Assembly (NCBI GenBank): GCA_043812975.1
Contig: JBDRLP010000014.1
Location: 1-34,170 of the forward strand
DNA length: 34,170 nucleotides
Reading direction: 5' to 3'
From: Candidatus Iainarchaeum sp.
GTDB lineage: Archaea; Iainarchaeota; Iainarchaeia; Iainarchaeales; Iainarchaeaceae
The translations under genes and the position numbers were made by a program. Shown piece by piece: positions 1 to 31,471 of the stretch (its first letter is position 1; every line of letters starts with the position of its first letter). The notes below the pieces were generated by a model, which did no database searches, was not told the origin of the DNA, and worked only from the letters and a program-made list of their open reading frames with translations.

Positions 1-3000
1 AGTGTTCAGACACTCACAAATATTCAGTCTTCCGTCTCCGAAAGTATTGAACTCCCGGTCAATATTTTCAACAGACTCTAACAATGACCAGTAATCCTTT
101 ATTACCATTGGGAAATTGGTTGTTCTCTGTTCTCCGCTTGGGGTTGTAAAGTTAACTCTAAGGTTTGTTCTTCCTTCTGCAGTGAACATTCCTGATGAAA
201 GGAAATACCTTAAGTTTCCAATATTTGCATAATCGTTAGCTGAAAAGAACTCAGCTGCAGGAGCATTGTTCTTGTATCTTTTTAGTGCTTTAACAAGTTC
301 AAATGTCATTACTTGTGTTGCTCTTCCGTTTGGGCCTGTAATAAATTCTTCATTTAGTACGCCCCAGCTTTCAATCATTTCTCTGAAACCAGAACCAGCA
401 TCTGTTGGTGTTGTTACTCCGGTTCCTCCAAACATTATTGCGTTGTTGCTGAACGGCAAAAATACTCCTTGGTCGAAGCAGGAGTTAATAACTTTTAATT
501 CAACTGGTTTTCCAAAGAAATTATTAAAGTTAAGAGTTCTTGAAGGGCTTACTGAAATACAATCCCTGTAATTCTTTGCCTGTTCATTGGTAATGTTAAC
601 ATTAAGTGTTGCAATGTCAATTGATTTTTCATTGCTTTCGCTTGGCTTAGCTTTAATTCCTAATTGGTATTTTCCAAAGAAGTTTGTTGGTTCTATTTTA
701 ATTGTTTCTTCTTCTCCGGGTTCAATAGTAATTGTTTTTTCTGCAACTGTAATTCCAGGTTGTGGATCAAAGCTCAAATCAATTGGGCTTTCACAGTTAT
801 TTCTTACTTCAAAGCCGCCTTCGTTACAGTTCCATGAATTATTGAATGACGCGTTGTAAGCTCCTCCTGAATAACCTCCGACTCCGCCGTAACCGCCACT
901 TATTCCGCCAAGGTTTCCACCATAGCCCCCTCCGTAATAGCCACTGCCATAAGAAGGGTTATTGTAAGAACCGCCATAATTACCATTTAAGTACGGAGCA
1001 GCATAACCTGCTGAAGGATAATAACTGTTCTGATAATTATTGATTGAGTTAGCTCCTTGGTAATCGTAATAAGAGTCTCCTGCTATTGGTCCCTGTCTGT
1101 AATCAGAACCGATGTATGGAGGCAATCCTGTCCCATAACCATACTGGCTTGAGTAAGGGTCATAAGCTGAGTACTGTGAATTATTGTACTGTGAAAACTG
1201 ACCTCCGCCGTAATTTCCATATCCTGTGTTGAATGGACAACTGTTAATCACAATCTCCCTGTTGGTTAGTATTTCCACACATTCGGATAGATTATTGATA
1301 TTCAAACTAACATCTATCTTTTGGGTTAGTTCTTCTTCTCCGTTTGCTGTTAAGTGAATAGCTTTAATTTCTACCTTTACTTCTGATGCGCCTGAAATAA
1401 TATTGTCTGGTTTGAATTCAAGTGTAATTGTTTCTTCAGCACTTTCATTCAAAAGAGGTGCAAGTTCTTTGTAGAGATTATCAACAGGAACAGCAGTTCC
1501 ATTTTCTATTGTACTGCTTGCTCTGAAAGTTCCAAACAAATTATCGTTTCCTGAAACAAGTCTTACACTTGGGCTTCTCAAACTAACTTTTTCACCGTTA
1601 ACTTTACAATTATTTGTAACTGTGAAGTTCATTGTTTTGGTTTCTGTTGTTGAACCAAATATTCCCCATTCTCCCGGGAACACATTGAAACAACCTGAAT
1701 CATCAACTTCATCTCCGAAACCAATTCTTAGTTCCATTGGGATTGAAGCTAACCAAGTTTGTTCAAAGCTTGAGTTTGAAACATAAATATTAATAGAACC
1801 CTGCAGTTTTAGTGGTTCTGCAATTATTTTTCCAAGAGAACCTAAGCTTATTTTTCCTGCAAGCACTGAATTTCCATCAACATTAATTCTTGTGCCTTCT
1901 GTTGGTTCATCAAACCTGATATCAGCAAATCCTTCAAAGTCTCTGCTCATTGAAACACTGTCAACATCAAGTGGTATTTGTGAAAGATTCAGTAAGTCAG
2001 CATCTATTGTTTTGAAATCAGTGCCTCCAACAGATAATGAAAGCTTTATTGTTTCTGGGTTAGCAACCAGTATGTTTGAAGTAATTTTCAATTGTTTTTC
2101 TGTTGGCTTGTAACCTGTTTTTTCAACAAGAACCCCAACAACAGTTCCTTCTGCCGGGGAAAGTAATGTGTAAGCAAATACTCCTTCTGCATTTGTCTGA
2201 CCTGAAGCAATTATTTCAGCATTCTTTTTAATGCTAACAAATGCGTTTGAAATTGTGTTTGTGGAGTTATCATCAGTAACTCTCACTAATAAGTTGTTGT
2301 TGATTAATGGTACAATTATTTTTGGTAAAACATCGATATTAAGTTCCTCTGCAGGAAGTATCTTTACAAAGATTGTTTTCTTGTAAACCTCAATTGCATT
2401 TTCTGTTCCGGAAATAACTGAAATTTCAAGCGGAATTGTTCCTTCTTTTTTTGTCTCAAAAATAATTTCTCCGCCCACAACAGAATCTTTTCTTAGTTCT
2501 CCGACCGCTACTGAAACCTCAGACCCGACTCCCTGGCCTTCTCTTTCTTCACCAAGAGCTGTTTTGATTTTGTAAGAGTCAATAGAAATACCACTGCTTC
2601 TGTCCTTAATGCTCAATTGGGTTGCGCTTAATGGTGTTTCTGAAACACTGGAAATATCAAATATCAATCTGTACTTGTTGCTGATTTGGGCAGTGTAATC
2701 ATCCAAAATACTGGATGTCAGGTTTTCTCTCAAATCAGTTATTGAATAGTTTGAACAGAATTCTTCTCCGCATAAGGATGAAGGTCCTGCTGTATAAGTT
2801 CTTTTTGAAGCATTAGCGTACAATCCTTGTTTTTCTCCTTTTGAAGCAGAGGTTCCTAAAACTGCATCACTAGGCACTCTGATATAACCGCCGCTTTTTC
2901 CATAAGCCCTGTACCAAATATCCAATAATGAACCGATTTTTGCTTCACTTTTAATCTGAATATCAGCTTCTATTTCAATAATGCCCCCAACAACATTGCT

Positions 3001-5136
3001 GAAAGCAATGTTCGCCCATTTAGCGTTTCCGGTTGTCTGATGCTGGAAATCAGTTGTTTCTCCTGTTGGGGCGGTGTAAGATGTTCCTTTTGCAATTGAA
3101 TCATAAGCAGCCATAACATTGGTAATGTAAAGCAGATCTTTTTCCATTACTTGGTTATCTTCCTTGCCGGTTCTGATGTGGACTCCTGCTTCTTCAAAGC
3201 TTGAATTACTTGGAACAAGCATTCTAAGTTTAGCAGTATAAGTCTGGCCAGGGTTTAGAGCTCTGTCTGATTCTGAAACACTTTCACCCCCTACATACAA
3301 ACCATCAAGTTCAATACCAAATGTCTGAATGTCGGTTGTTAAAGTAATTCTTTTTTGAATTGTAACATCTTTCTGTAAACCAATCGGGGTTGTTGTTGTA
3401 CTAGCCAAATCATTTGCTGAAACAATAAGGAAAACAACCTTGTCAGCTCTTACAGTAATGTTTTTTTTACCGTCAGAATCTGTTGAAACTTCCTGTAATA
3501 ATTGTCCTGAAAAAAAGTCAACTACTTTTATGGTTGCAGCAGTAACAGGTTTTCCCTGATCATCACTTACAGTTGCTTCAATTTTTCCTGAACCAATAGA
3601 GAGTCTGATTTCGAGAACGTTTTCACTTCTATTATCAAGATTTATTGGGTCGCTTGTGTTTTCTGCAAAACCAGGCTTAACTGCATAAACATAATACAAA
3701 CCGTTTTCTACTCTGTCAAAGATTCCTCTTCCATCTAATCCTGTTACAAGTTCCTGTCCAACCTGTGTTCCGTCAGAGTTCGCTTTTAGTTTTAATCTCA
3801 CATTCTCAACAGGCTTACCAGTCTCATCAATAACTGTAACAAGTAAACTTTCACTGTTTTCAAGAGTTGCCTGTTCCAACTCAACCTGCCTGAAATCAGT
3901 TGATGGTCTCATATTTAATGTTTCAATTAAGTAACCTGCTTTATCAATCATTAAATCGTATTCAACATCTTCTCCTACACTGAATTCTACTTTTCCATCT
4001 GCTCCTGTGTAATTACTTGTTATTTTAGTTTCTCCTTTTGAAAGAGTAACCAAAGCATTCTGAACAGTATCTCCTGTGTCTTTATCTTTTACTAAAAGTT
4101 TAATTGAACCAACAACATTATCTGCAAGTAAAACAGCAAACTCTGTGCTTTCGTTTTCAAGAACTTCCTGAATAATCCCTAAGGCTTTTCCATCATATTC
4201 TCCGTAAACTCCGCTTCGGTCATAAGCGACAATGTAAAACCTTCCTGAAGGAATTGAATTGAAAATTGCTGTTCCTGAAGCACTTGTCTGTTTTGAATCT
4301 AAAATAGTTCCTACTCCTCCTGTTTCAGAAGCAAGGTAAAGAGAAACATCAATTGCTGCAAGGGTTTCACTTCTGCTGTTCATAACAGTTACAAACACGC
4401 TTCCATGTCCCTGTTCGGGTTCTTCTAGGAAAAGATCAAATGATGTTTCTGATGAAAGAGAAATTGAATCATCACTTAAAGTATAATTCCCAAAAACTCT
4501 TGTTGTTAATGTTACACAATTACTCGGAACATCTAATTCAATTATTCCATTGGAAGTGCTTTCAATTGTTGTGAAGCTTGTCCCTGTACAGGAAAACTCT
4601 ACTTCTAAAAATTCATCAATCAATCTTGTTGTGCCTGCTTTCATCAGATTAATTGTTTTTCTTAGTGTAACAAGTTCTTTTTGCATTGTTATTGTTAGTT
4701 CTTCCCCGCTTTCTTTAGCAGTGTAAAAAACAGTTTTATCATTCATGCCTACTGCGATTACATTAATTTCAACTTCTTCATTAAGCGGTAATTGTAAATC
4801 AGCTATTCCAACAGCATTTGTTGTTGTTTCATCAACAAGTTCTCCATTAAGAGTTGCTTTTATTGCTGCAGCACTTACAACCGCTCCGGTATTATCCTGA
4901 ACAAATATTTCTATATTTGCTGCTCCGAAAAATAAGGAACTTATTCCCCAGACAATAAGTAAAAGAACAACGAGTGAAAATAAAATTGCTATTGGAAATG
5001 AAGGTATGTTCTGGGCTTCTATTGCATCAACAACCTTGTAAACAGGTAATCCTTTGTCATCAAGCCAGTCAAGAACAGAATAATATTTTTCCTCTGCTTT
5101 ACTATAAAAGTCCTTAATCGAGTCAGACAAGCCCAT
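1..5136 (-). CDS. Giant membrane-anchored surface protein (>=1712 aa, C-terminus beyond the left window edge); paralog of 6395..14797; carboxypeptidase-regulatory/Ig-like repeats
   Basis: Manual translation from ATG at 5136: MGLSDSIKDFYSKAEEKYYSVLDWLDDKGLPVYKVVDAIEAQNIPSFPIAILFSLVVLLLIVWG. The frame was open at every point checked down to base 1 (...DREFNTFGDGRLNICECLNT). Absence from the ORF track is consistent with no in-window stop. Beta-sandwich motifs such as VTVIDETGKPVENVRLKL and IDKAGY. Confidence 0.92.
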   Translation of the reverse strand, partial: MGLSDSIKDFYSKAEEKYYSVLDWLDDKGLPVYKVVDAIEAQNIPSFPIAILFSLVVLLLIVWGISSLFFGAANIEIFVQDNTGAVVSAAAIKATLNGELVDETTTNAVGIADLQLPLNEEVEINVIAVGMNDKTVFYTAKESGEELTITMQKELVTLRKTINLMKAGTTRLIDEFLEVEFSCTGTSFTTIESTSNGIIELDVPSNCVTLTTRVFGNYTLSDDSISLSSETSFDLFLEEPEQGHGSVFVTVMNSRSETLAAIDVSLYLASETGGVGTILDSKQTSASGTAIFNSIPSGRFYIVAYDRSGVYGEYDGKALGIIQEVLENESTEFAVLLADNVVGSIKLLVKDKDTGDTVQNALVTLSKGETKITSNYTGADGKVEFSVGEDVEYDLMIDKAGYLIETLNMRPSTDFRQVELEQATLENSESLLVTVIDETGKPVENVRLKLKANSDGTQVGQELVTGLDGRGIFDRVENGLYYVYAVKPGFAENTSDPINLDNRSENVLEIRLSIGSGKIEATVSDDQGKPVTAATIKVVDFFSGQLLQEVSTDSDGKKNITVRADKVVFLIVSANDLASTTTTPIGLQKDVTIQKRITLTTDIQTFGIELDGLYVGGESVSESDRALNPGQTYTAKLRMLVPSNSSFEEAGVHIRTGKEDNQVMEKDLLYITNVMAAYDSIAKGTSYTAPTGETTDFQHQTTGNAKWANIAFSNVVGGIIEIEADIQIKSEAKIGSLLDIWYRAYGKSGGYIRVPSDAVLGTSASKGEKQGLYANASKRTYTAGPSSLCGEEFCSNYSITDLRENLTSSILDDYTAQISNKYRLIFDISSVSETPLSATQLSIKDRSSGISIDSYKIKTALGEEREGQGVGSEVSVAVGELRKDSVVGGEIIFETKKEGTIPLEISVISGTENAIEVYKKTIFVKILPAEELNIDVLPKIIVPLINNNLLVRVTDDNSTNTISNAFVSIKKNAEIIASGQTNAEGVFAYTLLSPAEGTVVGVLVEKTGYKPTEKQLKITSNILVANPETIKLSLSVGGTDFKTIDADLLNLSQIPLDVDSVSMSRDFEGFADIRFDEPTEGTRINVDGNSVLAGKISLGSLGKIIAEPLKLQGSINIYVSNSSFEQTWLASIPMELRIGFGDEVDDSGCFNVFPGEWGIFGSTTETKTMNFTVTNNCKVNGEKVSLRSPSVRLVSGNDNLFGTFRASSTIENGTAVPVDNLYKELAPLLNESAEETITLEFKPDNIISGASEVKVEIKAIHLTANGEEELTQKIDVSLNINNLSECVEILTNREIVINSCPFNTGYGNYGGGQFSQYNNSQYSAYDPYSSQYGYGTGLPPYIGSDYRQGPIAGDSYYDYQGANSINNYQNSYYPSAGYAAPYLNGNYGGSYNNPSYGSGYYGGGYGGNLGGISGGYGGVGGYSGGAYNASFNNSWNCNEGGFEVRNNCESPIDLSFDPQPGITVAEKTITIEPGEEETIKIEPTNFFGKYQLGIKAKPSESNEKSIDIATLNVNITNEQAKNYRDCISVSPSRTLNFNNFFGKPVELKVINSCFDQGVFLPFSNNAIMFGGTGVTTPTDAGSGFREMIESWGVLNEEFITGPNGRATQVMTFELVKALKRYKNNAPAAEFFSANDYANIGNLRYFLSSGMFTAEGRTNLRVNFTTPSGEQRTTNFPMVIKDYWSLLESVENIDREFNTFGDGRLNICECLNT

Positions 5137-5223
5137 CAAATCACTGAATCATTAAATGCAATTAATGTATATATTATTAATTGTATTACGTCTTTCCATT
5201 TAAAGATATCTATTCTACTTAAA

Positions 5224-5287
5224 TTTGTTTGCTAATTTAGGAATTTTTTCAGACTTTTGTTTGCTAATTTAGGAATTTTTTCAGGCT
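5224..5287. repeat. Tandem 32-bp duplication covering the stop codon of 5264..6358
   Basis: tttgtttgctaatttaggaattttttcag(a/g)ct at 5224-5255 and 5256-5287, 31/32 identical. Confidence 0.92.
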
Positions 5288-6358
5288 TACTCCGTAAATA
5301 TGATTGTTTGGATCTCCTGATTCACCGTCGCCGCTCACCATGTATTTTGGATCCTTTTCCTTAAAATAAATTTTCACTTCATAATTATCAATTTCAGGAA
5401 TAATACTTGGGTCAGCTCCGGAAAGAGGAATTGCTCTAACTCTAAGCTCAACAAATTCAAAGTCAGGGTCACTATCAAGACCGGCATCACGAATAATCTG
5501 CCTAACTTCGCCTTCTAAAAGGCTTTCAGCATCACCTTTTTCTTTGATTTTTATTTTTCCATCTTCCAATCTAGGATTGTTTCTAATTCGGTTGCCGACT
5601 TCCTTTGCAGCAGCCAAAGCTTTGAATAATCTTAACGGAACATAAACCCTGAATCTTCCTCTTGGAAGAATTGCTTCTTTCAAAACTTTTCCTGTTTGCG
5701 AATTTTCAACTTTTACAAGAGGGAACTTTTCATATTCCTCATCAGTCATAATGTCAGGACTTAAATCCATTGTGAGATAAAATGTTCCTGTGCAGTTTCC
5801 AAAGTTTCCGTTTTCGCAGTCAATTACCTCAAAAAAGTTTTCCAGATGACCTCCTTGAATCTGTTTGTTAAGGTTGGTTTGTAAAGTTACTTCCAGTGCT
5901 TCCTGATTAGTTTGTTCTAAATCAATCAAAAAACCTCTTGCATCAGGAGTTTTTTGAAGAATAGAATTCAGGTGTCTTGCTGCTCTTAATGCAAAATTGT
6001 TTTTTCCATCAGCCCCAACACCAAACCTGTCTGCAACAAATTCAGCTTGAAGTTCATCCCAGTCTATTGGTATGTTAATAAATTTTGTATAAACATCATC
6101 CGGCAGACCATCACTTGGTTCCCTGTCTCTTGTTGAAAAATCTTCGATGCTGTATCTTATTCCGTAATTAAAAACCTGTAATGCATCAGCCCTTGCAAGA
6201 TCAGCTACTGCCTGCATTTCTTCCTGTCCTGAAATATCAGAAATAATATCAGAAACAGTTCTCTCTGTTGAAATCATTGACTGAACAAGTAACAATGAAA
6301 GCATTATCAGTACAAAAGCAATCAATGCAGTAAAAAGTGTGAAACCTTTTGAATTCAT
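5264..6358 (-). CDS. Large pilin-like protein with class III signal peptide (364 aa)
   Basis: MNSKG|FTLFTALIAFVLIMLSLLLVQ: short basic leader, KG cleavage site, hydrophobic helix, then a soluble domain with a Cys pair. Confidence 0.75.
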   Translation of the reverse strand: MNSKGFTLFTALIAFVLIMLSLLLVQSMISTERTVSDIISDISGQEEMQAVADLARADALQVFNYGIRYSIEDFSTRDREPSDGLPDDVYTKFINIPIDWDELQAEFVADRFGVGADGKNNFALRAARHLNSILQKTPDARGFLIDLEQTNQEALEVTLQTNLNKQIQGGHLENFFEVIDCENGNFGNCTGTFYLTMDLSPDIMTDEEYEKFPLVKVENSQTGKVLKEAILPRGRFRVYVPLRLFKALAAAKEVGNRIRNNPRLEDGKIKIKEKGDAESLLEGEVRQIIRDAGLDSDPDFEFVELRVRAIPLSGADPSIIPEIDNYEVKIYFKEKDPKYMVSGDGESGDPNNHIYGVSLKKFLN

Positions 6359-6389: not shown

Positions 6390-6394
6390 TAACT

Positions 6395-9300
6395 CTAGGG
6401 TGATGTAATTCCGAATTTATACCCTTCCCAGGCAGTATAAACTTCTGCAAATTCAGTTGGCTTTAAGTCTATGAAATTTGAAGGCATATTGCTTGTGTCC
6501 TGATTGTACTTTGCAAAGTAACATTCAGGCGTATCTACACATTCTTCCTGATAAGAAACAAGTTTGTTCATAGCACATGTTGCATTATTGAAAGGGCTTC
6601 TTGTTGTCTGATTTGTTGAGTTACAACCAAACATGTACTGGTTTTGTAAATTAGGATCTAAACCTAAACCGCTTTTTGCTATTCCAAGTGAAGTTAATAA
6701 TGCTTCAAAGTTCAGTGGCTGAGTAATTTCGCTTTGTTTAGCTTCTACAGCCTGAGCAATTAAACCGCCATACCTATCCCCGTTTGCCTGCTCTTCTAAG
6801 TAACTCTTTGCAATAGCAACATGCTGGTTCTTTGTTGAACTATTTCTTAGGAATGGTTTCGGGAATTCGCTTTCATTTTCAACTTCTGGGATTAAACCAG
6901 GGAATGATCCCCCGATTCCTTTATTGAAGTTAGGGGCTTTACAATCGTTTAACACAAATTTTTCTATGTCAGGTTCTTTTGGAATTGTATCTCTTAATCC
7001 TAATGTAAACAATGTACTTTGATCATCAGCAACCGAAACAGCTACACTATAAGTTCTGTAATTTCTGATTGTTGCTGTTGATGGTTCTAATTCAAAAGTT
7101 GGTCCAAAGAAGTCTAATTGTGCTTTCTTCAGATCATCCTCTCTTGTGCTTATGGTTCCTGTGTTTGTCAATTTATCAAGTTCTTTGTCAAGTACAAAAT
7201 CGTATGCTTTTAGTCCGACCCAGTTTGAAAGTAATCCGAATGCTCCTTCTTTAACAACATTCCATGCAAGTTTTCCTAAACTTCTGAAACTAAAAAGCCT
7301 TGGTCTTGCGCTTGATGGATCAAATGCCTCAGTAGCAGCCTGAGTAAGTCTTCCTGCTGAAAGTTTGTTTGTTTTTTTAGCAACTGCTTCAATAAAGTCA
7401 TCTGCTGCGTTCGCTGCGCCTGCAGTGGCTCTTGGGAATGCTGAACTGCCATCAGTTAATGCTTGTTTAGTGTATCTTGTTAAGATTTCTTCCATTTCCT
7501 GCAGTGCTTGTGTTTGCTGTGCCTGACTTACCTTTGCAGTATATGAAGTTACTGTTCTTGATCCTTTACCCACACTTTTTACATCAGTTTCGGCAATTTT
7601 AATTTTTACTTGTTTAAGTTCATCAAGAATGTCTATTGGAAGGTTAGCCCTGTCAACACCGATTTCAGTCAAGTATCTTCCAATTGCTCTTTCCCTTAAT
7701 GGCCCTGTTACTGAAGTTTCAAGTTTTCTTGTAAGTGCCCCTCCTGTATTATTGAATTGATTTTCTGTAATTCCAAATGGCAGATTATCGCTTGCAAGAC
7801 TTCCCAAATTCATTTTTCCTGAAATTTCTCCAGCTACTTCATCTGCAAGTTCTGATGCTTTTATTGGAGAACCTGGGGCAATGTTTCCTCTCATCTGAAC
7901 AAACTCGCTTAGAATTTTTTCATTCTGTCCTGTTTTTTGTATTGCTGCTTCAACAGCCGCGCCTATTTCTTCCTGAGTTACTGATTTTCCAACACGTGCA
8001 AGTCTTGATTTTTGTTTAAGTGTTTCAGTAATGTTTGCTTTAATGTTTTTTTGTAAGTCAGAGTTAAGGTTTCTGATAAATTTACTTCTTAAAAATGCAT
8101 TTCCTCCTGCTCCCTCAAACACTTGCGTGTTAAACTTGTTTGCAATGGTTGTGGCTATATTATCTGAAAGGCCCCCGACCTGTGAAGCATTAATTGCTTT
8201 GGCTCCGTAAGTCTGGCTTGCAGCAAGTATCGAATCATTCACAACTGCTGCTGGCACAAATGCATCAATAATATTTTCAGGAACACTTTCCCCAGATGGA
8301 GCATTTAATGCCGCAGCAGTATCATCTAAGCCTTCAACCCCTAGGAAAGAGAACACTGTCTTTACTGTGTCTCCCAAATAACCCATTGCATCTTTAATGT
8401 ATTCAGTGGCTTTTCCTAATAAAGATGAAGCAAAATCAAAAACATCAGAAATATACGGTAAGTCTCTTCCTAAAAGTGTAAAGTACGGGATTCCACAATC
8501 AAACAATAGATTGAACACTGCTCCGCCCCAACCAATAATAGGTCTTGCAAGGGAAGTTGCTAAACTTGTTGCACTGCACGCTCCCATGTAGAAATGTGAT
8601 GCTTTATCTTTTGCGTTTGCAACAGGTTCAGAATCGCCTTTGCGTGTTGATGCAGTTCCGCCCAGGATTTCATCAGCTGTACTGGAAACCTTAGCCGATC
8701 TTGACATTTTCAGGAAATCATCCAAAGTCAATTCTTCATCAGGCTTACCATTCCACACAAATGTTGCGTAATAAGTTTTTCCCTGTTCTAAATCAGCAAG
8801 TTTTTCAGTAAACTCAAGCGGATGTATTCCGCAAACTTCAAGAGGAATTTCTTTAGGTATCGGTTTCTTCCCTTCACCTTCAATTCTTTTTACTTCCACA
8901 ACAACTGTTTTTCCCTGAGCATTCTGTAATTGTGAATCTCCTTCAACACAAATCCTTGCTTTTCCTGTGAAGTTGTTTTTCTCCTCATCTAATTCTGAAA
9001 TTGAAACCTCAGTAATCCTGTTATCAGATTCTTCTTCAAAAAAGAACGGGCTTTCTTTTGTAATTCCGCTTATTGGTGTTGATTGCTTTCCTTCAAGGCT
9101 TACTCTTTCCTTGATGCTGCTTGTAATTGTTAAATCAGTACACTGAGCACTACCATAACCAACCTGTATTTTATCGCCAGGAACAACGTCTATAGTTCCA
9201 AAGTCAAGTTTGCCTTTTAATAAGAAATAACTTTCATCCTCAGAAATACAACCATCAATTGCATTATCCCTTAAACCTGCAATTGCATCTGCTGCTTCCG

Positions 9301-15786: not shown

Positions 15787-15886
15787 ACAAAACAATTCAT
15801 TTTCAGAAATTTATTGGTTCTCTTTAGTCCCAAGTAAAGTATAATAAGAACAATACTCTAATTATTGTCAAAAATAGGGGTGTATT

Positions 15887-20972: not shown

Positions 20973-21004
20973 TGGGTTAAACTCTTAACTTTAGAGTGAT
21001 TAAA

Positions 21005-21847: not shown

Positions 21848-22016
21848 TGTTTTTCGCATTATTTATATAGTTCTTTTACGTATTTTGAATGATGCCACAG
21901 TTTCGGCTGTGGGCAACGACGGTTATCTCATCGCCTTTGGCGACGATGAGATAAGCCAGAAGTCAAAGTTGTTTTTCGCATTATTTATATAGTTCTTTTA
22001 CGTATTTTGATTGATG
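21848..22016. repeat. 47-bp direct repeat (promoter plus start codon) flanking a 75-bp hairpin insert
   Basis: tgtttttcgcattatttatatagttcttttacgtattttga(a/t)tgatg at 21848-21894 and 21970-22016 (46/47). The insert at 21895-21969 holds hairpins 21895-21912 and 21923-21954. Confidence 0.93.
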
Positions 22017-22592: not shown

Positions 22593-22593
22593 T

Positions 22594-24592: not shown

Positions 24593-24632
24593 TGCTTTTT
24601 CAAAAGCAGAATTATTTAGTTAGTGCTTTTTC
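24571..24632. repeat. Tandem 31-bp duplication at the junction of two convergent genes
   Basis: aaaagcagaattattcagctaatgctttttc (24571-24601) vs aaaagcagaattatttagttagtgctttttc (24602-24632), 28/31 identical. Confidence 0.85.
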
Positions 24633-25386
24633 TTTTTTTGAATTCGTTGGAACATTTAGGGCAGGTATAATCCAAAGAATCTATCTTAACCTCGACTTTT
24701 TTTGCACAATGGTCGCAAAAAGCCTCGCCGCAGTTAGGACAGTAAATAAAGTCCTTTGTTTTGTTGTTGCAGGTCGGACAATTATTTTCTGTTGTTTCAG
24801 TTTCCTTTTCAATTAAATCAAAATCATCAACATCTTCTAATTTGTTTTCAAGCGAACCTAGTTCGTCTACTGAAGAAAGTTTTTTTACTTCTTCAGAGGA
24901 TTCTAATTGGGATAAGTCATCGTTTTTTTCCAGTAAATCAGGCATTTCACCAGAATCATTTATTTTAGGCATTTCAATTTTTTGTTTCTCTTGTTTTGGA
25001 ATTTCTGTTTTTTCTTCTTGTTCAGTTTCTTTGTGACCATGATGTCCTTTTGCTTTTCGTTTTTCCAAAAAGCTCATTTTTTTCATGTTATCATCAAGAT
25101 CAGTTTCAAGATTTTCCAGTTCTTCTTCAGGTTCCCCTAAATCAATCTGTGAAGAAACTTCTTTTTTTTCTTCTCTATCCTGTTTTATTTCATTTTTCAA
25201 CTGAATAAAAACACTTTCACTTATTTCATCCAATTCATCTTTCTGAGGATACCTTGCGTGCGTATCTTTAAACTTATCAACTTCTTTAATTGCCAGTTCT
25301 GTGCTTCGGTCATCGACATCTTCCTGAGTTGGAAGTTCATCTCGATGTAATCTTTTCAACCTTCTAGGAACTTCTTCATCGCTCAT
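24616..25386 (-). CDS. Acidic, largely disordered protein with C-terminal 8-Cys zinc finger
   Basis: E/D/K-rich body; CPTC-x9-CPNC-x4-CDHC-x14-CPKC. Confidence 0.8.
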   Translation of the reverse strand: MSDEEVPRRLKRLHRDELPTQEDVDDRSTELAIKEVDKFKDTHARYPQKDELDEISESVFIQLKNEIKQDREEKKEVSSQIDLGEPEEELENLETDLDDNMKKMSFLEKRKAKGHHGHKETEQEEKTEIPKQEKQKIEMPKINDSGEMPDLLEKNDDLSQLESSEEVKKLSSVDELGSLENKLEDVDDFDLIEKETETTENNCPTCNNKTKDFIYCPNCGEAFCDHCAKKVEVKIDSLDYTCPKCSNEFKKRKSTN

Positions 25387-26279
25387 TTTGTATCCTCTGT
25401 TTCTTTTAGCAATTCTTTCAGTAATTTTGCTGACCTTGGCATTTCTTTTTCAAGATTGTTCTCTTCAGGTTTTTTTTCAATAGAGACTTTTGCCCTAAGA
25501 TTTTCAGTAATATATCTTTTTCTGGCTTCTGTTTGCTGGTCCATTTCCTGTCTTGTGACAATACTTTGATTGTCTTTTGCCGTCTGATTTTCTTCTAAAT
25601 TCTGAATTATTTTGTCAAGCCTTTTGGTTTTTTCAGGGGAAATCGGTTCAGGTTTACTTGGTTGAAACTGTTTCATGCTCACTTCAGCAGGTTTCATGTT
25701 TGGTTGAGTAGATTTCATGTCCTTTAAAGGGCTCTGGATTGTTTTTTTCATAAAAGGAGTTGCTTTTACTGCAGTAGGTACAGGAGCAGCTTGCTGTATT
25801 GGCTTAATATTTTCCAGCCGATCTTTTAGTTCATTAATCCTGTGCTGGCGGTCAGTATAAGTCGGAGCGTAACTTTCTTCAGGAAGTTTCTTAACTGCTT
25901 TTTTTGCAACAACATTTGCACTAATAACTCTTTTAGGAACTGAAACTTTTACTTTTTTTGTTCCTAAAAATTTTCTTTTCAGAGTAAAAAGAATTATTCC
26001 TGCACTTAGAAAAATAATTGAGTTTAATAAAACTATTTTAAAGAAAGCCATTCCTGTTAGTTCAAGGAAAAAAACTATTGCTGAAGAAACCAGAACAAGC
26101 ATTGAAAAAATTATTCCAAAAACTATGCTCCAGCCTTTTTTATAAGCAGGCTCTAATGACCTTATATTAGGCCAGCCGATTCTTAGGAGAATATACCCCC
26201 ATGTAGAAGATCCTAGAATTAAGTATAGAGATATTACTCCATCCAGAATTTGATTGATTAAACTCATGTTAGTAAACAT
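25383..26279 (-). CDS. Membrane protein with 3 N-terminal TMs and a long Lys/Pro-rich tail
   Basis: Three hydrophobic segments in the first ~100 aa; 4-nt overlap with the downstream zinc-finger gene. Confidence 0.78.
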   Translation of the reverse strand: MFTNMSLINQILDGVISLYLILGSSTWGYILLRIGWPNIRSLEPAYKKGWSIVFGIIFSMLVLVSSAIVFFLELTGMAFFKIVLLNSIIFLSAGIILFTLKRKFLGTKKVKVSVPKRVISANVVAKKAVKKLPEESYAPTYTDRQHRINELKDRLENIKPIQQAAPVPTAVKATPFMKKTIQSPLKDMKSTQPNMKPAEVSMKQFQPSKPEPISPEKTKRLDKIIQNLEENQTAKDNQSIVTRQEMDQQTEARKRYITENLRAKVSIEKKPEENNLEKEMPRSAKLLKELLKETEDTK

Positions 26280-26308: not shown

Positions 26309-26848
26309 ATGCCAATTAATCCATTAGAAAACCTGTTATTTTCAATTATTGGCTTACTTCAAGGATCGATTATTGTTTGCGTTCCTGTTTTTATTTTGGT
26401 TTTGTTTGGACAGGAATTAAGGGAAAAAATTGAAGAAGAAACAAAAAAAACCTGGATGACAACCGCGTTCATTGCAACAATAATAATGGTTTACATTTTA
26501 CTTTTGATAGCTTATTTTTTACCGTTCATTACTGCTTCTCAGGAAATAGGTCTCGGAGAAGTCCCTTCGATTTTTGCTCCTGATCCATTAACACTTTTGA
26601 TTTCATTCATCGCAGGAGTTCTCTGGGTTGGTGTGGTTACAATAGTTGTTTCATTGCTTTTAATGCCGTTTGAATTTGTAGGTGCTTATATTCATGAGGT
26701 AGTTTCAAAAAAACTCGGGAAAAAACCAGAATGGCTCAAACTCCTGATAACCTCTTACCTAATCAGTGTTTTTGCCTCAGCAATAATACTTTTCCTTGTT
26801 CCTGAAGTAATAACCGGAATATTTTATTTTCTTTATTATGGGCTCTAA
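26309..26848 (+). CDS. Multi-pass membrane protein (179 aa), unknown function
   Basis: 4-5 hydrophobic segments; divergent from 25383..26279 across a 29-nt AT-rich gap. Confidence 0.75.
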   Translation: MPINPLENLLFSIIGLLQGSIIVCVPVFILVLFGQELREKIEEETKKTWMTTAFIATIIMVYILLLIAYFLPFITASQEIGLGEVPSIFAPDPLTLLISFIAGVLWVGVVTIVVSLLLMPFEFVGAYIHEVVSKKLGKKPEWLKLLITSYLISVFASAIILFLVPEVITGIFYFLYYGL

Positions 26849-26947
26849 TTTTCTTAATTAGGAGTGCTGTCACCCCCCTACAAAAGAAATATATAAGATA
26901 GATTCTTACTAATTATTACTATATATAGTGATTAAGCAGGGTTCTGA

Positions 26948-29900
26948 ATGAAAAAGATATACAGCATTTTCCTAATTTACATGTTCATTTTTCCGTTATT
27001 TGGTTCAGTAGCACTTGCTGATTCTCCTGATACGGAAATCGATCCAAGAGTTCTTATTGAAACCCCTGAAGAAACAGATGCAAGAGAAGAAGGAGTGCCT
27101 CTTCCAGAACCAGAACCTCCTGTTGAACAGGTTAATGAATATGTTTGTGATTCTTCGCAATTATCTCCTGAAGAAAGCCAAGGGATAATTGATTTGTTGA
27201 AAGATGGTTTTACCGGAGATGAAATTGCAGGAGAAACCAAGAAAGACACTGAAAGAGAAGAATTGAACGCAAATGAACTTGTTCTTATAGATCCGCAGGA
27301 TGCAAACTCTGCAGTAAAAACAGAAGTACCAAACAAAAAATTTGCCCCAATAGAACTTTCACAATTTTTAAATTCTTATATTAACGGTCCATTTGCATTT
27401 GGAGTTATCTTGGAAGATTCTTTGAGAACAGGAAGATGCGAGTCTTATGATGGCAACTGCACATTAATGGGTCCTAATTTAAAATACAGAAATTCAGGTG
27501 TAGGAATAATTTCTGATTTAAAACCAGTGAAAGAAGTTTTTTCCGGTTTCCTTGATGGAAACAAAAACATTTCTCAATTCTCAAATGAAGAAAATGAAGT
27601 GTTAAGAACTGCAATGATAACTGATACAACTTTAAACGATGATGGTTCAGTTGAGGAAGCACAAATCAAAACAGCAAAAAGGCTTGAAAAAGATTTGATT
27701 CCGAACTCGATTCTAACTGATCAGTTTGATGCAAGGTTGCAAACAAACTGTAATAATTCGGCCTGCGTAATAAGCACTTATTCATTGTTTGATAAATATT
27801 TCAATTCCTGGATGTCAACTGAAATGGTTGTATCAACATTCGGTCCAAGCTTATTGTACCAGACAAAAAAATTATTCGGCTGGACAGGAAGAAGAGGATT
27901 CCTTTCAGGAGTAAGAGAAAGTTATCAGGACTTCCTTGATAGATTCAGAAAAGATTTTATTAAACCTGAGAGTTTCCTTGGAAAATTAAGAGCCAAAAGA
28001 GTCCAGAACAGAATAGACAAATATGGTTGGAGAGACTGGTTCCATGACATGACCGGAGGATCCAGTGATGGTTCTGGTTATTACTTATTCAAAACAGAGG
28101 AATTCCAAACATGGTGGGGAAAAGCACAGGCAAAAGGAGGCTGGCTTGAAAACATCAAGACTGCAGAGGAAAGAGCAGAATTAATCAGAACCTTTAAAGA
28201 TATGCGTTCGGTTTTAAAAGCAGCAGAATCCAGAAATAAAGTAGCTAAGGAATCCTATGATACTGCTTTGAGAGTACTTGGTGCGGATAATGCAGTTACA
28301 AAACAAAAATACATTGAATGGGGTCAGGATACTGTAAACTGGATGGACTCTACTTACGACGATTTGTTCGGAGCAGATTATATTGAATGGATTGCAAGAC
28401 ATCCAAATACGGGCTTTTACAATAAAGGAGTTTTACAGGTCAGACCAGATGGCGGTTCTGAAGTACTTAGTCTGTTCCACGAGCACAGAAATCTTCAGAG
28501 GATTCTGAGAAAGTTTGGAAATGATGGTTCATTTGCCGGATTTGATTCTGCTGCGGATTTATCAAAATATGGATCAGGATTCCAGACCAGTGGTGATGAC
28601 TTAGTTTATTTTGTATTCGACAGGGAAAACGCAATCAATTACCGAGGGCTATCTTATAGTAATCTTGAAAGAGCAGCTACAGGTCAAAGAGATACTTTTG
28701 CACTTACAGATTACGGAGATTATGTTCCATACACCTCACAGTCAGTTCCTTTCATACAGAACAGGATAGGAGCAAACGCACAGTTATTTGAAGGAAGCTG
28801 GAAACAGGCAGGTGTTTTGACTCCTGCTGATATAACCGCAAGAATAACAAATGCAAGAACAGGACCAACAGCAAACATGAAGTTCGGAACCTTAAACACA
28901 CAGCAAATGATTGATACTTTACAGGAAAGAAACTGGGTTTCAAGAAGATACTGGAATTCTCTGGATAAATTAATGGCTCAGGAAGATGAACTAATAAGAA
29001 GTTACTTTACAGTTAAAGGCGGAGCTAAATGGACTGCACTTCCTTTTGGTTACTGGTGGGCAAAAAAAGGATTCGGAATAGAAGGAATTTCACAATACCA
29101 GCTGCCTGACACCTGGCATGATTTAAAATTCACCCATGGTTCTGAAAACATTTATGATTTTGCTTACATAGATTTCTTTGCAAACGAAGGCTCTGATCAG
29201 GGAGATTTATTCATACAGGTAATCAACAAACTTCCTTGGAAATTAATTCTGGATGAACTTTCAGAAAAATACAATCCCGTGAAAAACCTTTATAATTCCT
29301 TAACTAAAAATGAATTGCGCAATGAAACTGAAGACCTTGCATTCTATTTAACAGGCCCGGAAGAATGTGAAAATTGTTCAATGGTACTAAGAAGCTCAAG
29401 TGATTTAACAGAATTCAAGCCGTTCTTTTTTGTTGAGGATAAGCAGCTTGTTTCCTATATTTTAGAGGACACAAGAAGTGAGGAAGCAAGAGCCAAAGGA
29501 CAAACCCTAATAGCTTTTGCAGGCCACACAAATCTTGTGGGGGAGAGCGGAAGAGAAGAAGGAGAACCAATTGATCTTGTTGCGGCAATCAGAGAAGAAG
29601 ATATCAAAACCTGCTCGGAAGCAATAGCAGAACTGAATTTTTACGGGCTTAATGTCGGGAAAATTCTTCCAAAGGATGCCAGTGTTGGTGCTGTTCTTGG
29701 AGGTCTTGAATCAATTACTTATGGTGTTTTCTTCTGGGCTGGAATATTCAGCACTGCGGCAATCCAGATAGTTGTCGCTCCGCAGTTGCACGGATGTGTG
29801 GATGTGGATGAGGGGTATTATGCGCATTACTTTGCACCAACACAGACAGAAGAGGATTCAGAAAGTGATGCTTCAGTTCAGTCAACGGAAAAGGTTTCAC

Positions 29901-31471
29901 AAATAGTTGATAATTTCAGGGACACTTTTGTACAGGGCTTTGAAGGATCAGATGAGAACACTTTCACAAAAGAAGCAGCGGAAGAACTCGGAATTGAAAT
30001 TGATAAATTTGTGAGGGACTCAAAGCAGAACGATATTGTACAGGCTACTTTAACGATGGATGGTTTGAGCAGTGGCCAGATTGATTCCAGAACATTATTT
30101 TATTTCTGGTGCGGCCGCGGCTGTGTAACAAATGCAGCTACTTATAGAACTGAAGGAAAAGAACAAGTAAGAGGAACCAATGGAACTAATGTTGATATTG
30201 ACTTTGAAAAAGGAGAAATAAGTGTTGACGGAGAGCCAATAGTTCAGAGTGAAGACAATGTAAGGCTTATTTCAACAAACCTTAATATTCCCGCAATCGA
30301 AATCCCAAAAACAATAACAGAAACCTGTTTGGAAAATACTTCAGAGGTTGCTGTTGAAATTAATGCTCAGGGAGAAGTAAGAGTACTGAACAATGATCTG
30401 CTCAATTGCATAAGGCAGGGTGTTTTGGAACAAACTGGTTTGCCTATGGAATCAGGAACCATGAAACTGAACGATGTTTTCGGTCCTTTGGAAGCGGTTG
30501 TAACAAGCACCCATCCAAATGTAAGGTTCTTTGATGACAAGATTATTGCAGAAGGAATCCCAAGAAAAGTAGCCGAAGGAAAAGATGCAAAGCTTTCCAT
30601 ACTGGCTAATAAGGATGTTAATATTTCTGTTTCAAACGACGGAGAAACTTCACTGGGAAAACTTGAATCAATACAGTTTGCTAATGGTTCTATTGTTGTA
30701 AAACCTAACGGGTGTTTCTTAACCTGGTTAAAGCATCATGAGGATGGAAAATTATCCAAAGACCTTGTTGAGGGAATTGATGCAAAGCTTAATCGTGAAT
30801 TCAATGAAGAAACCCAGTGTGAAGAACCAGTAGTAGACTTTTCATTATTTGCAGATGAAGCCTCTGATTACAAAACCGACAAGGTTGATAAATTCAACCA
30901 GTCATTACAGCATTTAGGCCCGTTCCAGGTATTTGAAACACCAACTCAAAGGTTTGTGATTTCTGCTGAAAAAAACGAAAGCGGCGTCTGTGAAGACCAT
31001 TTAAGAATAGTTGACAAGGAAACCGGAGAAGTACAGGACTTTGTAGGAGATATAACTCCAACTCCTGACGGTTTCAAAATCACAACTCCTGACGGTACGC
31101 AACATGAAATTTCATTTGATACTAAAGACGGAGCTCCGATAGTACAATTAGATGACCAGAAACCAGAACTTTTAACCGCGGCTCAGGGAAAGAATGGTTC
31201 GTTCTATTATGATCCGGATAAAGGTTTGTGGTTTGCAGAAAATGCACAGCTTCTTCCTTTGATTGAAGCGTTCCGTGAAGGTATTGCTGCTAAAGTACAG
31301 CCTAACGGAGAAACAACAGCCACGGCTTCAGGAAACGTACTTAATGTTGATCTTGGAGCAGATGATTCAGGATTCCTGAATCTGCCATCACTTCCGGAAG
31401 AAAGAATATTGTTGGCATTAATACTTGGATTGTTAGTTGCAACCTTCGCAATAGTGCAGAGAAGAAATTGA
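26948..31471 (+). CDS. Large exported protein (1507 aa) with signal peptide and sortase-type C-terminal anchor
   Basis: N-terminus MKKIYSIFLIYMFIFPLFGSVALA|D; C-terminus FLNLPSLPEERILLALILGLLVATFAIVQRRN (motif + TM + basic tail). Confidence 0.88.
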   Translation: MKKIYSIFLIYMFIFPLFGSVALADSPDTEIDPRVLIETPEETDAREEGVPLPEPEPPVEQVNEYVCDSSQLSPEESQGIIDLLKDGFTGDEIAGETKKDTEREELNANELVLIDPQDANSAVKTEVPNKKFAPIELSQFLNSYINGPFAFGVILEDSLRTGRCESYDGNCTLMGPNLKYRNSGVGIISDLKPVKEVFSGFLDGNKNISQFSNEENEVLRTAMITDTTLNDDGSVEEAQIKTAKRLEKDLIPNSILTDQFDARLQTNCNNSACVISTYSLFDKYFNSWMSTEMVVSTFGPSLLYQTKKLFGWTGRRGFLSGVRESYQDFLDRFRKDFIKPESFLGKLRAKRVQNRIDKYGWRDWFHDMTGGSSDGSGYYLFKTEEFQTWWGKAQAKGGWLENIKTAEERAELIRTFKDMRSVLKAAESRNKVAKESYDTALRVLGADNAVTKQKYIEWGQDTVNWMDSTYDDLFGADYIEWIARHPNTGFYNKGVLQVRPDGGSEVLSLFHEHRNLQRILRKFGNDGSFAGFDSAADLSKYGSGFQTSGDDLVYFVFDRENAINYRGLSYSNLERAATGQRDTFALTDYGDYVPYTSQSVPFIQNRIGANAQLFEGSWKQAGVLTPADITARITNARTGPTANMKFGTLNTQQMIDTLQERNWVSRRYWNSLDKLMAQEDELIRSYFTVKGGAKWTALPFGYWWAKKGFGIEGISQYQLPDTWHDLKFTHGSENIYDFAYIDFFANEGSDQGDLFIQVINKLPWKLILDELSEKYNPVKNLYNSLTKNELRNETEDLAFYLTGPEECENCSMVLRSSSDLTEFKPFFFVEDKQLVSYILEDTRSEEARAKGQTLIAFAGHTNLVGESGREEGEPIDLVAAIREEDIKTCSEAIAELNFYGLNVGKILPKDASVGAVLGGLESITYGVFFWAGIFSTAAIQIVVAPQLHGCVDVDEGYYAHYFAPTQTEEDSESDASVQSTEKVSQIVDNFRDTFVQGFEGSDENTFTKEAAEELGIEIDKFVRDSKQNDIVQATLTMDGLSSGQIDSRTLFYFWCGRGCVTNAATYRTEGKEQVRGTNGTNVDIDFEKGEISVDGEPIVQSEDNVRLISTNLNIPAIEIPKTITETCLENTSEVAVEINAQGEVRVLNNDLLNCIRQGVLEQTGLPMESGTMKLNDVFGPLEAVVTSTHPNVRFFDDKIIAEGIPRKVAEGKDAKLSILANKDVNISVSNDGETSLGKLESIQFANGSIVVKPNGCFLTWLKHHEDGKLSKDLVEGIDAKLNREFNEETQCEEPVVDFSLFADEASDYKTDKVDKFNQSLQHLGPFQVFETPTQRFVISAEKNESGVCEDHLRIVDKETGEVQDFVGDITPTPDGFKITTPDGTQHEISFDTKDGAPIVQLDDQKPELLTAAQGKNGSFYYDPDKGLWFAENAQLLPLIEAFREGIAAKVQPNGETTATASGNVLNVDLGADDSGFLNLPSLPEERILLALILGLLVATFAIVQRRN

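Follow-up and report, generated by a model that had tools for sequence, protein, structure and literature searches.

A phylum-conserved surface locus of Iainarchaeota, with pilus-type machinery, an archaeosortase and giant proteins, is a probable cell-contact apparatus

Results

A conserved cell-surface locus

We propose that the window, the whole 34,170-nucleotide stretch analysed here, is the core of a phylum-conserved Iainarchaeota cell-surface super-locus whose three modules jointly form a contact apparatus, a reading to which we assign a probability of roughly 0.55. The window is an entire contig of a 1.24-Mb, 94%-complete genome from the Iainarchaeota, a phylum of tiny-genome DPANN archaea formerly called Diapherotrites. 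It encodes an assembly ATPase, a platform protein, eight pilin-like proteins, an archaeosortase-family protein, a 1,507-aa surface protein and two giant proteins. The first-pass annotation had listed the ATPase, the platform, about eight pilin-like genes and exported proteins of >1712, 2800 and 1507 aa, and every gene that it named was found where it had placed it.

Across families, and as far as each relative’s contigs extend, 12 of 13 relatives share the gene order giant A, pilin-like gene, giant B, archaeosortase, then ATPase, platform, pilin-like genes and, further on, the 1,507-aa protein; the clustering is thus beyond chance. Both order and orientation persist between families whose giants share only 23-35% identity. 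The thirteenth relative is the complete genome G024, in which the ATPase, platform, archaeosortase and giants were sought: all are retained but dispersed (ATPase at 709 kb, platform at 340 kb, archaeosortase at 73 kb and giants at 233-250 kb), and linkage is thus not obligatory. In every case, G024 included, giant B and giant A have a pilin-like gene between them. The earlier reading had been staked on the giants and the sortase-like gene accompanying this ATPase clade in related genomes, where they do both co-occur and co-localize with it. Since every gene of the locus belongs to the core set of the phylum, finding them together does not by itself discriminate between readings.

Three accessory genes share the synteny:

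24616..25386, minus strand: acidic 256-aa protein with a C-terminal zinc ribbon (family match and synteny)
25383..26279, minus strand: 298-aa membrane protein (TM prediction and synteny)
26309..26848, plus strand: 179-aa polytopic membrane protein, directly upstream of the 1,507-aa protein (TM prediction and synteny)

Filament assembly machinery and pilin-like proteins

The first module, a machine of the type IV filament kind, comprises the following genes, in which ↓ marks the putative cut site:

15887..18169, plus strand: assembly ATPase, 760 aa, with a clade-specific N-domain (aa 1-~290) and a FlaI/CpaF/GspE2-type core (PF00437)
18170..20515, plus strand: platform protein, 781 aa, two T2SSF-like halves fused (TM count, Pfam, hhalign)
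20517..20945, plus strand: pilin-like, 142 aa, KA↓QAF... (synteny, N-terminus)
20996..21547, plus strand: pilin-like, 183 aa, KG↓QAY..., probable ATG at 21005 (synteny, N-terminus)
21666..21830, plus strand: mini-pilin-like, 54 aa, EEKA↓QGEW... (synteny, N-terminus)
22011..22592, plus strand: pilin-like, 193 aa, KG↓QESAPFELL... (synteny, N-terminus)
22573..23262, plus strand: N-anchored protein, 229 aa, probable start MLGYILSK at 22594 (synteny, N-terminus)
23256..23777, plus strand: pilin-like, 173 aa, KG↓FIGPIGDDLPSLIPL... (synteny, N-terminus)
23768..24592, plus strand: pilin-like, 274 aa, KG↓QAAVTDA... (synteny, N-terminus)
5264..6358, minus strand: pilin-like, 364 aa, KG↓FTLFTAL..., between giant B and giant A (synteny, N-terminus, AF2)

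The ATPase scores 67.2 bits against PF00437 (cut-off 24.9), which places it among the PilB/FlaI/GspE-family hexameric ATPases, and its closest solved structures in a PDB search are A. fulgidus GspE2 (2OAP, E 9.5e-32), CpaF and FlaI. Orthologues are present in 36 of 40 relatives; of 215 genomes from the phylum, 186 carry the N-domain, as do 57 of the 58 high-quality ones. The platform has about 9 TM segments. It is sub-threshold against Pfam T2SSF (19.9 bits, cut-off 25.2); hhalign against five unambiguous T2SSF proteins from the window’s own genome gives 94.9% for the first half (E 4.2e-8) and 89.4% for the second (E 2e-6). By these profile matches the platform is a polytopic protein of the T2SSF/TadC/FlaJ family. 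As the first-pass annotation held, an archaellum is ruled out: archaellin (PF01917) returned 0 matches across the 94%-complete genome, and the ATPase scores 152 bits against the FlaI equivalog NF058587, far below its cut-off of 550.

Each of the eight pilin-like genes has a 1:1 orthologue, and the N-terminus is conserved as [KR][GA]↓Q/F followed by a hydrophobic helix. Inspection of these conserved N-termini shows that seven of the eight fit a class III signal well, with a short leader, a [KR][GA] cut site and a hydrophobic helix; the 229-aa protein is the least certain as a pilin because its leader is atypical. Pfam searches matched none of the eight to a pilin family model, and DPANN pilins are described as too divergent for standard models in the accessible text of Makarova et al. 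2019 (PMC6393860). The best conserved member of the set is the 54-aa mini-pilin-like protein, which shares 81% identity with its G038 counterpart over 42 aa. The AF2 model of the 364-aa protein (pLDDT 81.4) has a helix at residues 4-76 and a globular α/β head, and its N-terminus matches ComGF weakly (E 4.8e-4).

We infer that the ATPase, the fused platform and the eight pilin-like proteins would build a short pilus or pseudopilus. Two A24 prepilin peptidase genes (PF01478) are present in the genome, both on contig C27 and none within the locus.

An archaeosortase and its candidate substrate

The second module pairs a small archaeosortase-family protein with one exported protein:

15229..15795, minus strand: small exosortase/archaeosortase-family protein, 188 aa (TIGR04178)
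26948..31471, plus strand: Sec-exported surface protein, 1,507 aa, no family match (Pfam/NCBIfam searches, synteny)
31373..31468, plus strand: C-terminal sorting signal of that protein, NLPSLPE, hydrophobic helix and RRN (alignment)

The first of these genes had been called a sortase, a name that does not hold in the strict sense of the Gram-positive transpeptidase: Pfam gave no Sortase family match, and the protein scores 39.2 bits against the exosortase/archaeosortase model TIGR04178 (cut-off 23; 41.2 bits in the genome-wide search). Pfam returned no family at E<=0.01; relaxing the limit to E<=10 added YajC and DUF1385 alone, at E 0.1 and 0.8, no better than chance. Cys85, Arg127 and His147 show no substitution in 10 orthologues; the exosortase/archaeosortase family uses Cys, Arg and His as its catalytic residues. 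Scores against the named subfamilies ArtB, ArtD, ArtF, XrtG, XrtH, XrtP and XrtX are 18-29 bits, where the cut-offs are 86-200.

The tripartite tail of the 1,507-aa protein, NLPSLPE followed by a TM helix and basic residues, is conserved in all nine sequences compared (the window protein and 8 orthologues). It is the sole tail of its type in the genome, leaving a single candidate substrate for the archaeosortase, which would cleave the signal and re-anchor the protein on the cell surface. The PSLPE motif matched no NCBIfam model at E<=0.01 and is a previously unlisted C-terminal signal.

Giant proteins with a shared tag and variable tips

The third module consists of the giants:

1..5139, minus strand: the initial ~1,712 aa of giant A, probably starting at the ATG at 5136, with a tag, one TM segment and CarboxypepD_reg/Ig-like repeats
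4996..5136, minus strand: N-terminal cytoplasmic tag of giant A, ~47 aa, whose last residues before the TM segment are IPSFP
6395..14797, minus strand: giant B, 2,800 aa, with a tag, a TM segment, a conserved stalk (aa 1-2100) and a variable distal part
14657..14797, minus strand: N-terminal cytoplasmic tag of giant B
6398..6895, minus strand: C-terminal domain of giant B, aa ~2635-2800, Cys-rich, with a predicted lysozyme-like fold (AF2 and structure search)

Giant A, which matches PF13620 at 104 bits, is cut at the window start; an exact 141-bp overlap with contig C61 adds ~816 aa, giving ~2,530 aa in total and a tail that matches the A-type tail profile. The two giants had been described as paralogues with a pilin-like gene between them. 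The position of that gene stands; the paralogy holds for the first ~850 residues, to which similarity is confined (28% identity across 179 aa with E 6e-18, and 22% across 449 aa), and not beyond. The N-terminal 900 aa of giant B have a match in 40 of 41 genomes. With further giants on contigs C5, C23 and C13, the genome encodes at least seven. These proteins form a tandem family of 2,300-3,400 aa, most of which begin with a conserved 42-residue cytoplasmic tag, reduced to a stump in giant D and lacking in two others; a [GN]-IP[SA]FP boundary is conserved directly ahead of the TM helix. In public data the tag profile matches 960 protein cluster representatives at E<=1e-3. Among the best 150 of these, 146 have the match beginning no later than residue 10, and 74 are at least 1,800 aa long.

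The last ~165 aa of giant B are modelled by AF2 with pLDDT 84-97 (10-residue block means). In an all-against-all structure search the top match is MltF (rmsd 3.1 over 120 aa) with Z 10.3, in a range that the tool flags as doubtful for helical domains, and the 35 best rows are, judged by their entry titles, almost exclusively wall hydrolases of the lysozyme superfamily. Residue E2698 is a near-invariant Glu (Asp in 1 of 19 alignment rows) and a candidate catalytic residue. Sequence-level searches and Foldseek returned no counterpart: nothing for the tail in Pfam at E<=10, SLT included; 1.5% in hhalign against an SLT alignment; no SLT/lysozyme-like match in a PDB profile search; and no Foldseek match at E<=0.001. 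The tip in the window genome is accordingly described here as lysozyme-like by predicted fold. The membrane-active tips of the earlier reading were not found, as each window giant has an N-terminal TM segment only and giant B ends in this predicted lysozyme-like domain.

Giant B orthologues of other families carry murein hydrolase domains recognizable by Pfam: SLT in G033 (40.5 bits) and Amidase_2 in G037 (100 bits). SLT was found in reading frames of at least 1,900 aa in 8 genomes, and four of seven Amidase_2 matches lie in frames of 2,321-3,447 aa. These domains point to murein-walled bacteria as the target. Among the 74 tagged giants of at least 1,800 aa from the best 150 representatives, only 11 have a giant B-type tip and 2 an SLT-type tip.

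Discussion

A probable cell-contact apparatus and its alternatives

The locus is probably a cell-contact apparatus. Each giant would be held in the membrane by its one N-terminal helix, with a long Ig-like stalk reaching outward and an exchangeable tip at the end: in giant B lysozyme-like in the window genome, and an SLT or MurNAc-L-Ala amidase domain in other families. The filament and the anchored proteins together would attach the cell to a partner or surface, and giant B, if its tip is enzymatically active, would cut the glycan wall of that partner, probably a murein-walled bacterium. As in the earlier reading, the pilus may deploy the giants, and the organism may be an episymbiont. Some observations count against the contact reading: the parts are unlinked in G024, the call on the giant B tip is one of fold, and few tagged giants carry a giant B-type or SLT-type tip.

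The modules may instead be independent envelope genes, neighbours only through retained synteny, with an ordinary adhesion pilus and with the 1,507-aa protein and the giants forming the cell’s own S-layer-like or sheath-like coat, no host being involved. We consider this unlikely, although it deserves serious weight. The S-layer glycoprotein of Haloferax is an archaeosortase substrate; the parts are near-universal in the phylum, as expected for housekeeping envelope genes, and they stay in the G024 genome though unlinked. Diapherotrites are, moreover, counted among the metabolically richer, possibly free-living DPANN in the accessible part of PMC8561730, which weighs against contact with a partner. 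What speaks for a contact apparatus over a self-coat is the survival of order and orientation between such divergent giants, the pilin-like gene that invariably separates giant B from giant A, and the variable distal tips and murein hydrolase domains, which would be odd in the coat of a murein-free organism.

The strict 1:1 orthology and fixed order of the eight pilin-like genes resemble T2SS pseudopilins, unlike variable adhesin pilins. The bioRxiv preprint 10.1101/2023.11.21.568195 offers a bacterial parallel in Omnitrophota, where T2SS/T4P-like loci containing class III-signal genes stand ahead of the giant genes. The machine could thus be a type II secretion-like pseudopilus that drives either the giants or the 1,507-aa protein across the envelope or out of it, in place of an external pilus. 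This seems improbable to us. With an N-terminal anchor that looks uncleaved on the giants and a Sec signal on the 1,507-aa protein, there is no obvious call for a piston in either case, nor is an outer barrier known for these archaea. More improbable still would be giants that are themselves modular pilins, entering or decorating the filament after prepilin peptidase cuts the 42-residue tag as a long class III leader. The giants do share the N-in topology of pilins and have a conserved boundary directly before the helix, and large tip proteins are described for archaeal T4P loci in the text of Makarova, Koonin & Albers 2016 (PMC4858521). Yet the residues preceding the putative cut are inconsistent (RG, KN, QN, AN, NG), giant D has a stump of the tag and two more giants have none. 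We know of no precedent for a class III leader of 42 strongly conserved residues.

Comparison with known systems

Exosortase/archaeosortase sorting with a dedicated adjacent target was reportedly described by Haft and colleagues in 2012; ArtA/PGF-CTERM of Haloferax is another such system. The present pair shares with such systems the TIGR04178 family, the conserved Cys/Arg/His and a target with a motif, TM helix and basic tail; it differs in falling far below every named subfamily cut-off, in a PSLPE motif without an NCBIfam model and in having a single candidate substrate in its genome.

Archaeal T4P loci, among them the DPANN islands of PMC6393860, combine in the accessible texts of PMC4858521 and PMC6393860 an ATPase of the FlaI type, a platform of the TadC/FlaJ type, series of genes for class III-signal proteins and one or two large surface proteins, all features shared with the Iainarchaeota locus. 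Here, unlike in those loci, a clade-specific N-domain of 290 aa extends the ATPase, the two platform halves are fused into one 781-aa protein, the giants are N-anchored, tagged proteins of 2,300-3,400 aa in tandem arrays, and the block includes an archaeosortase and its putative substrate. The words DPANN, Diapherotrites and archaeosortase are all absent from PMC4858521; the FTP tables of both papers and Figure 2A of PMC6393860 may show such a locus.

Woesearchaeota and Pacearchaeota have proteins of up to ~3,000 aa resembling murein lytic transglycosylases, which Castelle et al. 2021 (PMC8204110) read as serving attachment to, or attack on, bacterial walls; the main text calls them specific to those two lineages and leaves Diapherotrites unnamed. 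Giants bearing a murein hydrolase domain in DPANN are common to both cases. As far as that text goes, links to a pilus machine, an archaeosortase and an N-terminal tag are found only here, and the predicted tip in the window genome is recognizable by fold alone.

In the available part of West-Roberts et al. 2023 (10.1101/2023.11.21.568195), the giants of Omnitrophota carry attachment and wall-degrading domains and are read as mediating prey adhesion and wall digestion; upstream of their genes lies a conserved locus with a secretion ATPase, a platform and numerous small genes bearing class III signals. Giant surface proteins beside an ATPase/platform pair and class III-signal genes are thus shared with the Iainarchaeota locus, whereas the loci described there are bacterial, include a gspD secretin, encode far larger proteins and have no archaeosortase. 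The resemblance between the two would be convergent.

Organization and conservation of the locus

The window makes up all of contig C14 (34,170 bp) of a genome (G000) of 1.24 Mb in 68 contigs that is 94% complete, and close homologues of its ATPase bear the label ‘Candidatus Diapherotrites archaeon’. This places the organism among the DPANN archaea, in the phylum now named Iainarchaeota. The genes of the window can be sorted into three modules: a type IV filament machine, an archaeosortase with a putative 1,507-aa substrate, and giants, by which we mean long N-anchored surface proteins. The features are arranged as follows:

Minus strand, from the centre to the left: 188-aa archaeosortase-family protein
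14960-15232, plus strand: two-TM open reading frame of 90 aa, between giant B and the archaeosortase
Minus strand: giant B, 2,800 aa
Minus strand: 364-aa pilin-like protein
Minus strand: giant A, its first 1,713 aa only, as the gene runs off the left end of the window
Plus strand, from the centre to the right: 760-aa ATPase
Plus strand: 781-aa polytopic protein
Plus strand: seven small N-anchored proteins
To the right of these: three small accessory genes (one on the plus strand, two on the minus strand)
Plus strand: 1,507-aa exported protein
Past 31.5 kb: three additional genes, among them the following two
32344-33216, minus strand: 290-aa Cys-rich N-anchored protein
33373-34116, minus strand: PAC2 proteasome-assembly chaperone (140 bits), the last gene, flanking the locus

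Rfam and tRNA scans detected no RNA genes in the window. Three groundwater DNA runs contain small shares of the stretch, and no RNA dataset is listed as containing it.

Conservation of this layout was assessed by tblastn searches of 21 window proteins against 40-80 kb around the ATPase in 13 relatives. Gene order and orientation are the same in 12 of the 13 as far as the contigs reach, and these 12 include different families whose ATPases are 58-68% and whose giants are 23-36% identical to those of the window. The archaeosortase and giant B are separated by a spacer of variable length, about 0.1 to 22 kb. In G024, the one relative that departs from this order and a complete genome of 840 kb, the ATPase lies at 709 kb, the platform at 340 kb and the archaeosortase at 73 kb; the giant B-pilin-giant A triad is kept together there at 233-250 kb. 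The components are widespread as well: 36 of 40 relatives have an ATPase orthologue (three intein-interrupted, two fragments), the four lacking one being 76-89% complete, and the N-terminal domain of the ATPase occurs in 186 of 215 genomes across the phylum, among them 57 of the 58 of high quality. For giant B, matches to the N-terminal 900 aa were obtained in 40 of 41 genomes and matches to the C-terminal 1,300 aa in 34 of 41.

Some of the smaller genes were also followed into the relatives. The 90-aa frame has no counterpart at E<1e-5 in any of the 13 and may therefore not be a gene. The 290-aa Cys-rich protein, which matches no family, is kept near the locus in G038, G035 and G007, and six relatives (G038, G037, G023, G035, G032, G030) likewise have a PAC2 gene on the far side of the 1,507-aa gene, a linkage that is probably conserved neighbourhood only.

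The filament machine and the archaeosortase

The ATPase is above the PF00437 cut-off (67 bits) and reaches the cut-off of no named NCBIfam subfamily (FlaI 152/550, TadA 137/373, BasE 73/1000). Its closest solved relatives, A. fulgidus GspE2, CpaF and FlaI, cover only residues ~290-650, and residues 1-~290 form a clade-specific N-domain. The genome as a whole encodes six PF00437 ATPases and two A24 peptidases, and no archaellin was found in it at 94% completeness. In several relatives (G011, G017, G030; proteins P0024, P0029, P0033, P0055 and others) the ATPase orthologue is ~1,270-1,300 aa long, and intein/LAGLIDADG domains (PF14528, PF14890) interrupt it at about residue 490.

The 781-aa protein, with about nine TM segments, matches nothing significantly in Pfam or NCBIfam; its profile returned nothing relevant from the PDB or NCBIfam, and it reached a sub-threshold 19.9 bits in a genome-wide T2SSF search. 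Profile-profile comparison with T2SSF, for which five true T2SSF proteins from the same genome served as the comparison set, matched both the first half (94.9%, E 4.2e-8, 293 columns) and the second half (89.4%, E 2e-6, 138 columns). On this evidence the protein is a platform made of two fused T2SSF halves.

The small proteins and the 364-aa protein share an N-terminus of the form [KR][GA]|Q/F followed by a hydrophobic helix, the 229-aa member having an atypical start. In the relatives, every one of them is matched by a separate orthologue that shares its N-terminus, and the best conserved, of 54 aa, is 81% identical to that of G038 over 42 aa. Modelled with AF2 (pLDDT 81.4, pTM 0.74), the 364-aa protein folds into a helix at residues 4-76 and an alpha/beta head. 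Foldseek gave no match to this model at E<=0.001, and the best hit of a structure search, a T6SS baseplate gp25-like chain at Z 5.8, is not significant; the long helix aligns with coiled coils in general, including those of archaellins.

The 188-aa protein is above the exosortase/archaeosortase signature cut-off (39 bits vs 23) and fits none of the named archaeosortase subfamilies, with Cys85, Arg127 and His147 invariant across ten orthologues. The 1,507-aa protein begins with a Sec-type signal peptide and ends in FLNLPSLPEE, a hydrophobic helix and RRN. This tail (NLPSLPE, helix, basic residues) is kept in the window protein and in all eight recovered orthologues, and is the only one of its type in the genome. 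Searches with the protein gave nothing above noise in Pfam and NCBIfam and no usable match in the ESM Atlas. Two further archaeosortase-family genes lie elsewhere in the genome, on contigs C27 (C27:131584-131844) and C34 (C34:10997-11260). The former adjoins a 538-aa protein (C27:132671-134284) whose hydrophobic, basic C-terminal tail is different, which suggests a second enzyme-target pair.

Giants and their tips

Giant A continues beyond the window: an exact 141-bp overlap between C14 and C61 extends it by ~816 aa onto C61, which in turn has an exact contig-end overlap with C5. C5 has a same-strand tandem of three more giants, of 2,514 aa, 2,553 aa and, for the one that runs off the contig end, at least 1,570 aa. 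C23 begins with an 836-aa giant tail followed by a giant of 2,433 aa, and C13 carries a single tagged giant of 2,413 aa. Altogether, seven or more giants occupy roughly 50 kb of the 1.24-Mb genome by summed frame lengths, with the machine extra.

Giants A and B are alike only in their first ~850 residues, where a conserved cytoplasmic N-terminus is followed by one TM helix and then by CarboxypepD_reg/Ig-like repeats. The first-pass annotation had given the giants membrane-active tips; we reject this, since the N-terminal helix is the sole one that a hydropathy scan detects in either. The cytoplasmic N-terminus forms a tag of ~42 residues with the consensus ...Y-x3-E-[DE]-K-[FYW]-[FY]-x3-D...KG-[IV]-P-V-Y...[GN]-I-P-[SA]-F-P, reduced to a stump in a giant outside the window (giant D) and absent in two giants. 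A 50-position tag profile searched against 1.84 billion proteins returned 960 cluster representatives at E<=1e-3, of which 377 remain at the stricter threshold of <=1e-10. Among the best 150 matches, 146 begin within the first ten residues, and 74 proteins are at least 1,800 aa long, nine are 1,000-1,799 aa and 67 are shorter, the last being taken to be contig-end fragments. Complex prediction for the ATPase N-domain (aa 1-300) and the tag (aa 1-47) gave no answer (score 0.00) and speaks neither for nor against binding.

In a comparison of 13 sequences, residues 1-2100 of giant B are conserved and the part distal to them varies. The last ~170 residues of the protein are a Cys-rich domain with a near-invariant Glu, common to 19 sequences of four families and modelled by AF2 at pLDDT 84-97 (10-residue block means). 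Foldseek found no match to this tip at E<=0.001, its weak top rows being GH73, GH23 and SLT enzymes. A structure search of 48,161 representative chains placed MltF at the top (Z 10.3, rmsd 3.1, 120 aa), followed by fungal muramidases (8.9, 8.4), g-type lysozyme (8.2), a T6SS effector (7.9), MltE (7.8) and MltC (7.5), values to be read in the light of Z below about 13 being sometimes commonplace for helical domains. Going by their titles, almost every entry among the top 35 is a wall or chitin hydrolase of the lysozyme superfamily. Because of this warning on Z, and because sequence-level support is lacking, the modelled lysozyme-like fold is only suggestive. The idea, prompted by motifs, of a diverged SLT domain in the tail finds no support at the sequence level: BLASTP against an SLT-bearing tail from the relative G033 gave E 0.1, hhalign against SLT gave 1.5%, and Pfam and PDB profile searches returned nothing.

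Domain matches in two relatives lend independent support to a wall-hydrolase reading of the tip. The giant B orthologue of G033 ends in Pfam SLT (40.5 bits) and that of G037 in Amidase_2 (100 bits), with a cupredoxin domain also present. SLT occurs in 62 of the 215 genomes of the phylum, mostly in frames of ~300 aa and in eight genomes in frames of at least 1,900 aa. Amidase_2 occurs in 5 of 215, and four of its seven matches are in frames of 2,321-3,447 aa, two of which also have SLT. Of the 74 long tagged proteins, 11 have the lysozyme-like domain, in every case as their very C-terminal end; counted regardless of position, the SLT alignment is matched by two and the giant A tail type by 26. 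This giant A tail type, with its ‘VC...WN’ ending, has no family match. A word-based homologue search with giant B returned 33 proteins, all unnamed or named only for CarboxypepD_reg, and none has a hydrolase domain on record. The genome also has a stand-alone SLT-domain protein of ~277 aa (C26:16667-16963, 57.6 bits), and similar small SLT genes are present in many genomes of the phylum.

Discussion

We regard the annotation of the individual parts as solid. That the three modules probably cooperate is suggested by the deep synteny and by the pilin-like gene staying with the giants even when the machine is elsewhere. Wall-hydrolase tips in a murein-free organism argue for an outward-facing target, probably bacterial; such tips are predicted on a minority of the giants, and in this genome by fold only. 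A bolder joint reading would make the machine a dedicated giant-deployment system in which the tag docks the giants and the wedged pilin-like gene supplies an adaptor, the whole being a grappling and wall-breaching organelle for attaching to and feeding on bacteria. We consider this unlikely as a whole, at a probability of roughly 15%.

To our knowledge, Iainarchaeota have no cultured member, and whether they are free-living or host-bound is unsettled. Giants and machine amount to a heavy investment in the cell surface for a small genome, and the distal murein-cutting domains of some giants suggest a testable host hypothesis, namely that the targets are bacteria. The archaeosortase-substrate pair can be tested in a model archaeon, and the tag (960 clusters) and PSLPE signal are simple markers for annotation and for detecting the apparatus in metagenomes and metaproteomes. 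According to one account (PMC11291902), every cultivated DPANN archaeon reported to date lives on an archaeal host.

Among titles and abstracts retrieved for Iainarchaeota or Iainarchaeum with pili, and for DPANN and Diapherotrites with type IV pili, none describes the locus. Large proteins are part of type IV pilus loci of Methanococci and Thermoproteales in the survey of Makarova et al. (2016, PMC4858521), where the words DPANN, Diapherotrites and archaeosortase are absent. In DPANN, Makarova et al. (2019, PMC6393860) describe type IV pilus islands that encode FlaI and TadC together with ‘specific surface proteins’ and pilins too divergent to recognise, and for Woese- and Pacearchaeota, Castelle et al. 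(2021, PMC8204110) describe SLT-domain proteins of up to 3,000 aa and suggest bacterial hosts. In Omnitrophota, T2SS/T4P-like loci precede giant genes (West-Roberts et al. 2023). If the deployment reading is true, the locus would point to cross-domain episymbiosis or predation, convergent with these giant-protein/T2SS loci of Omnitrophota.
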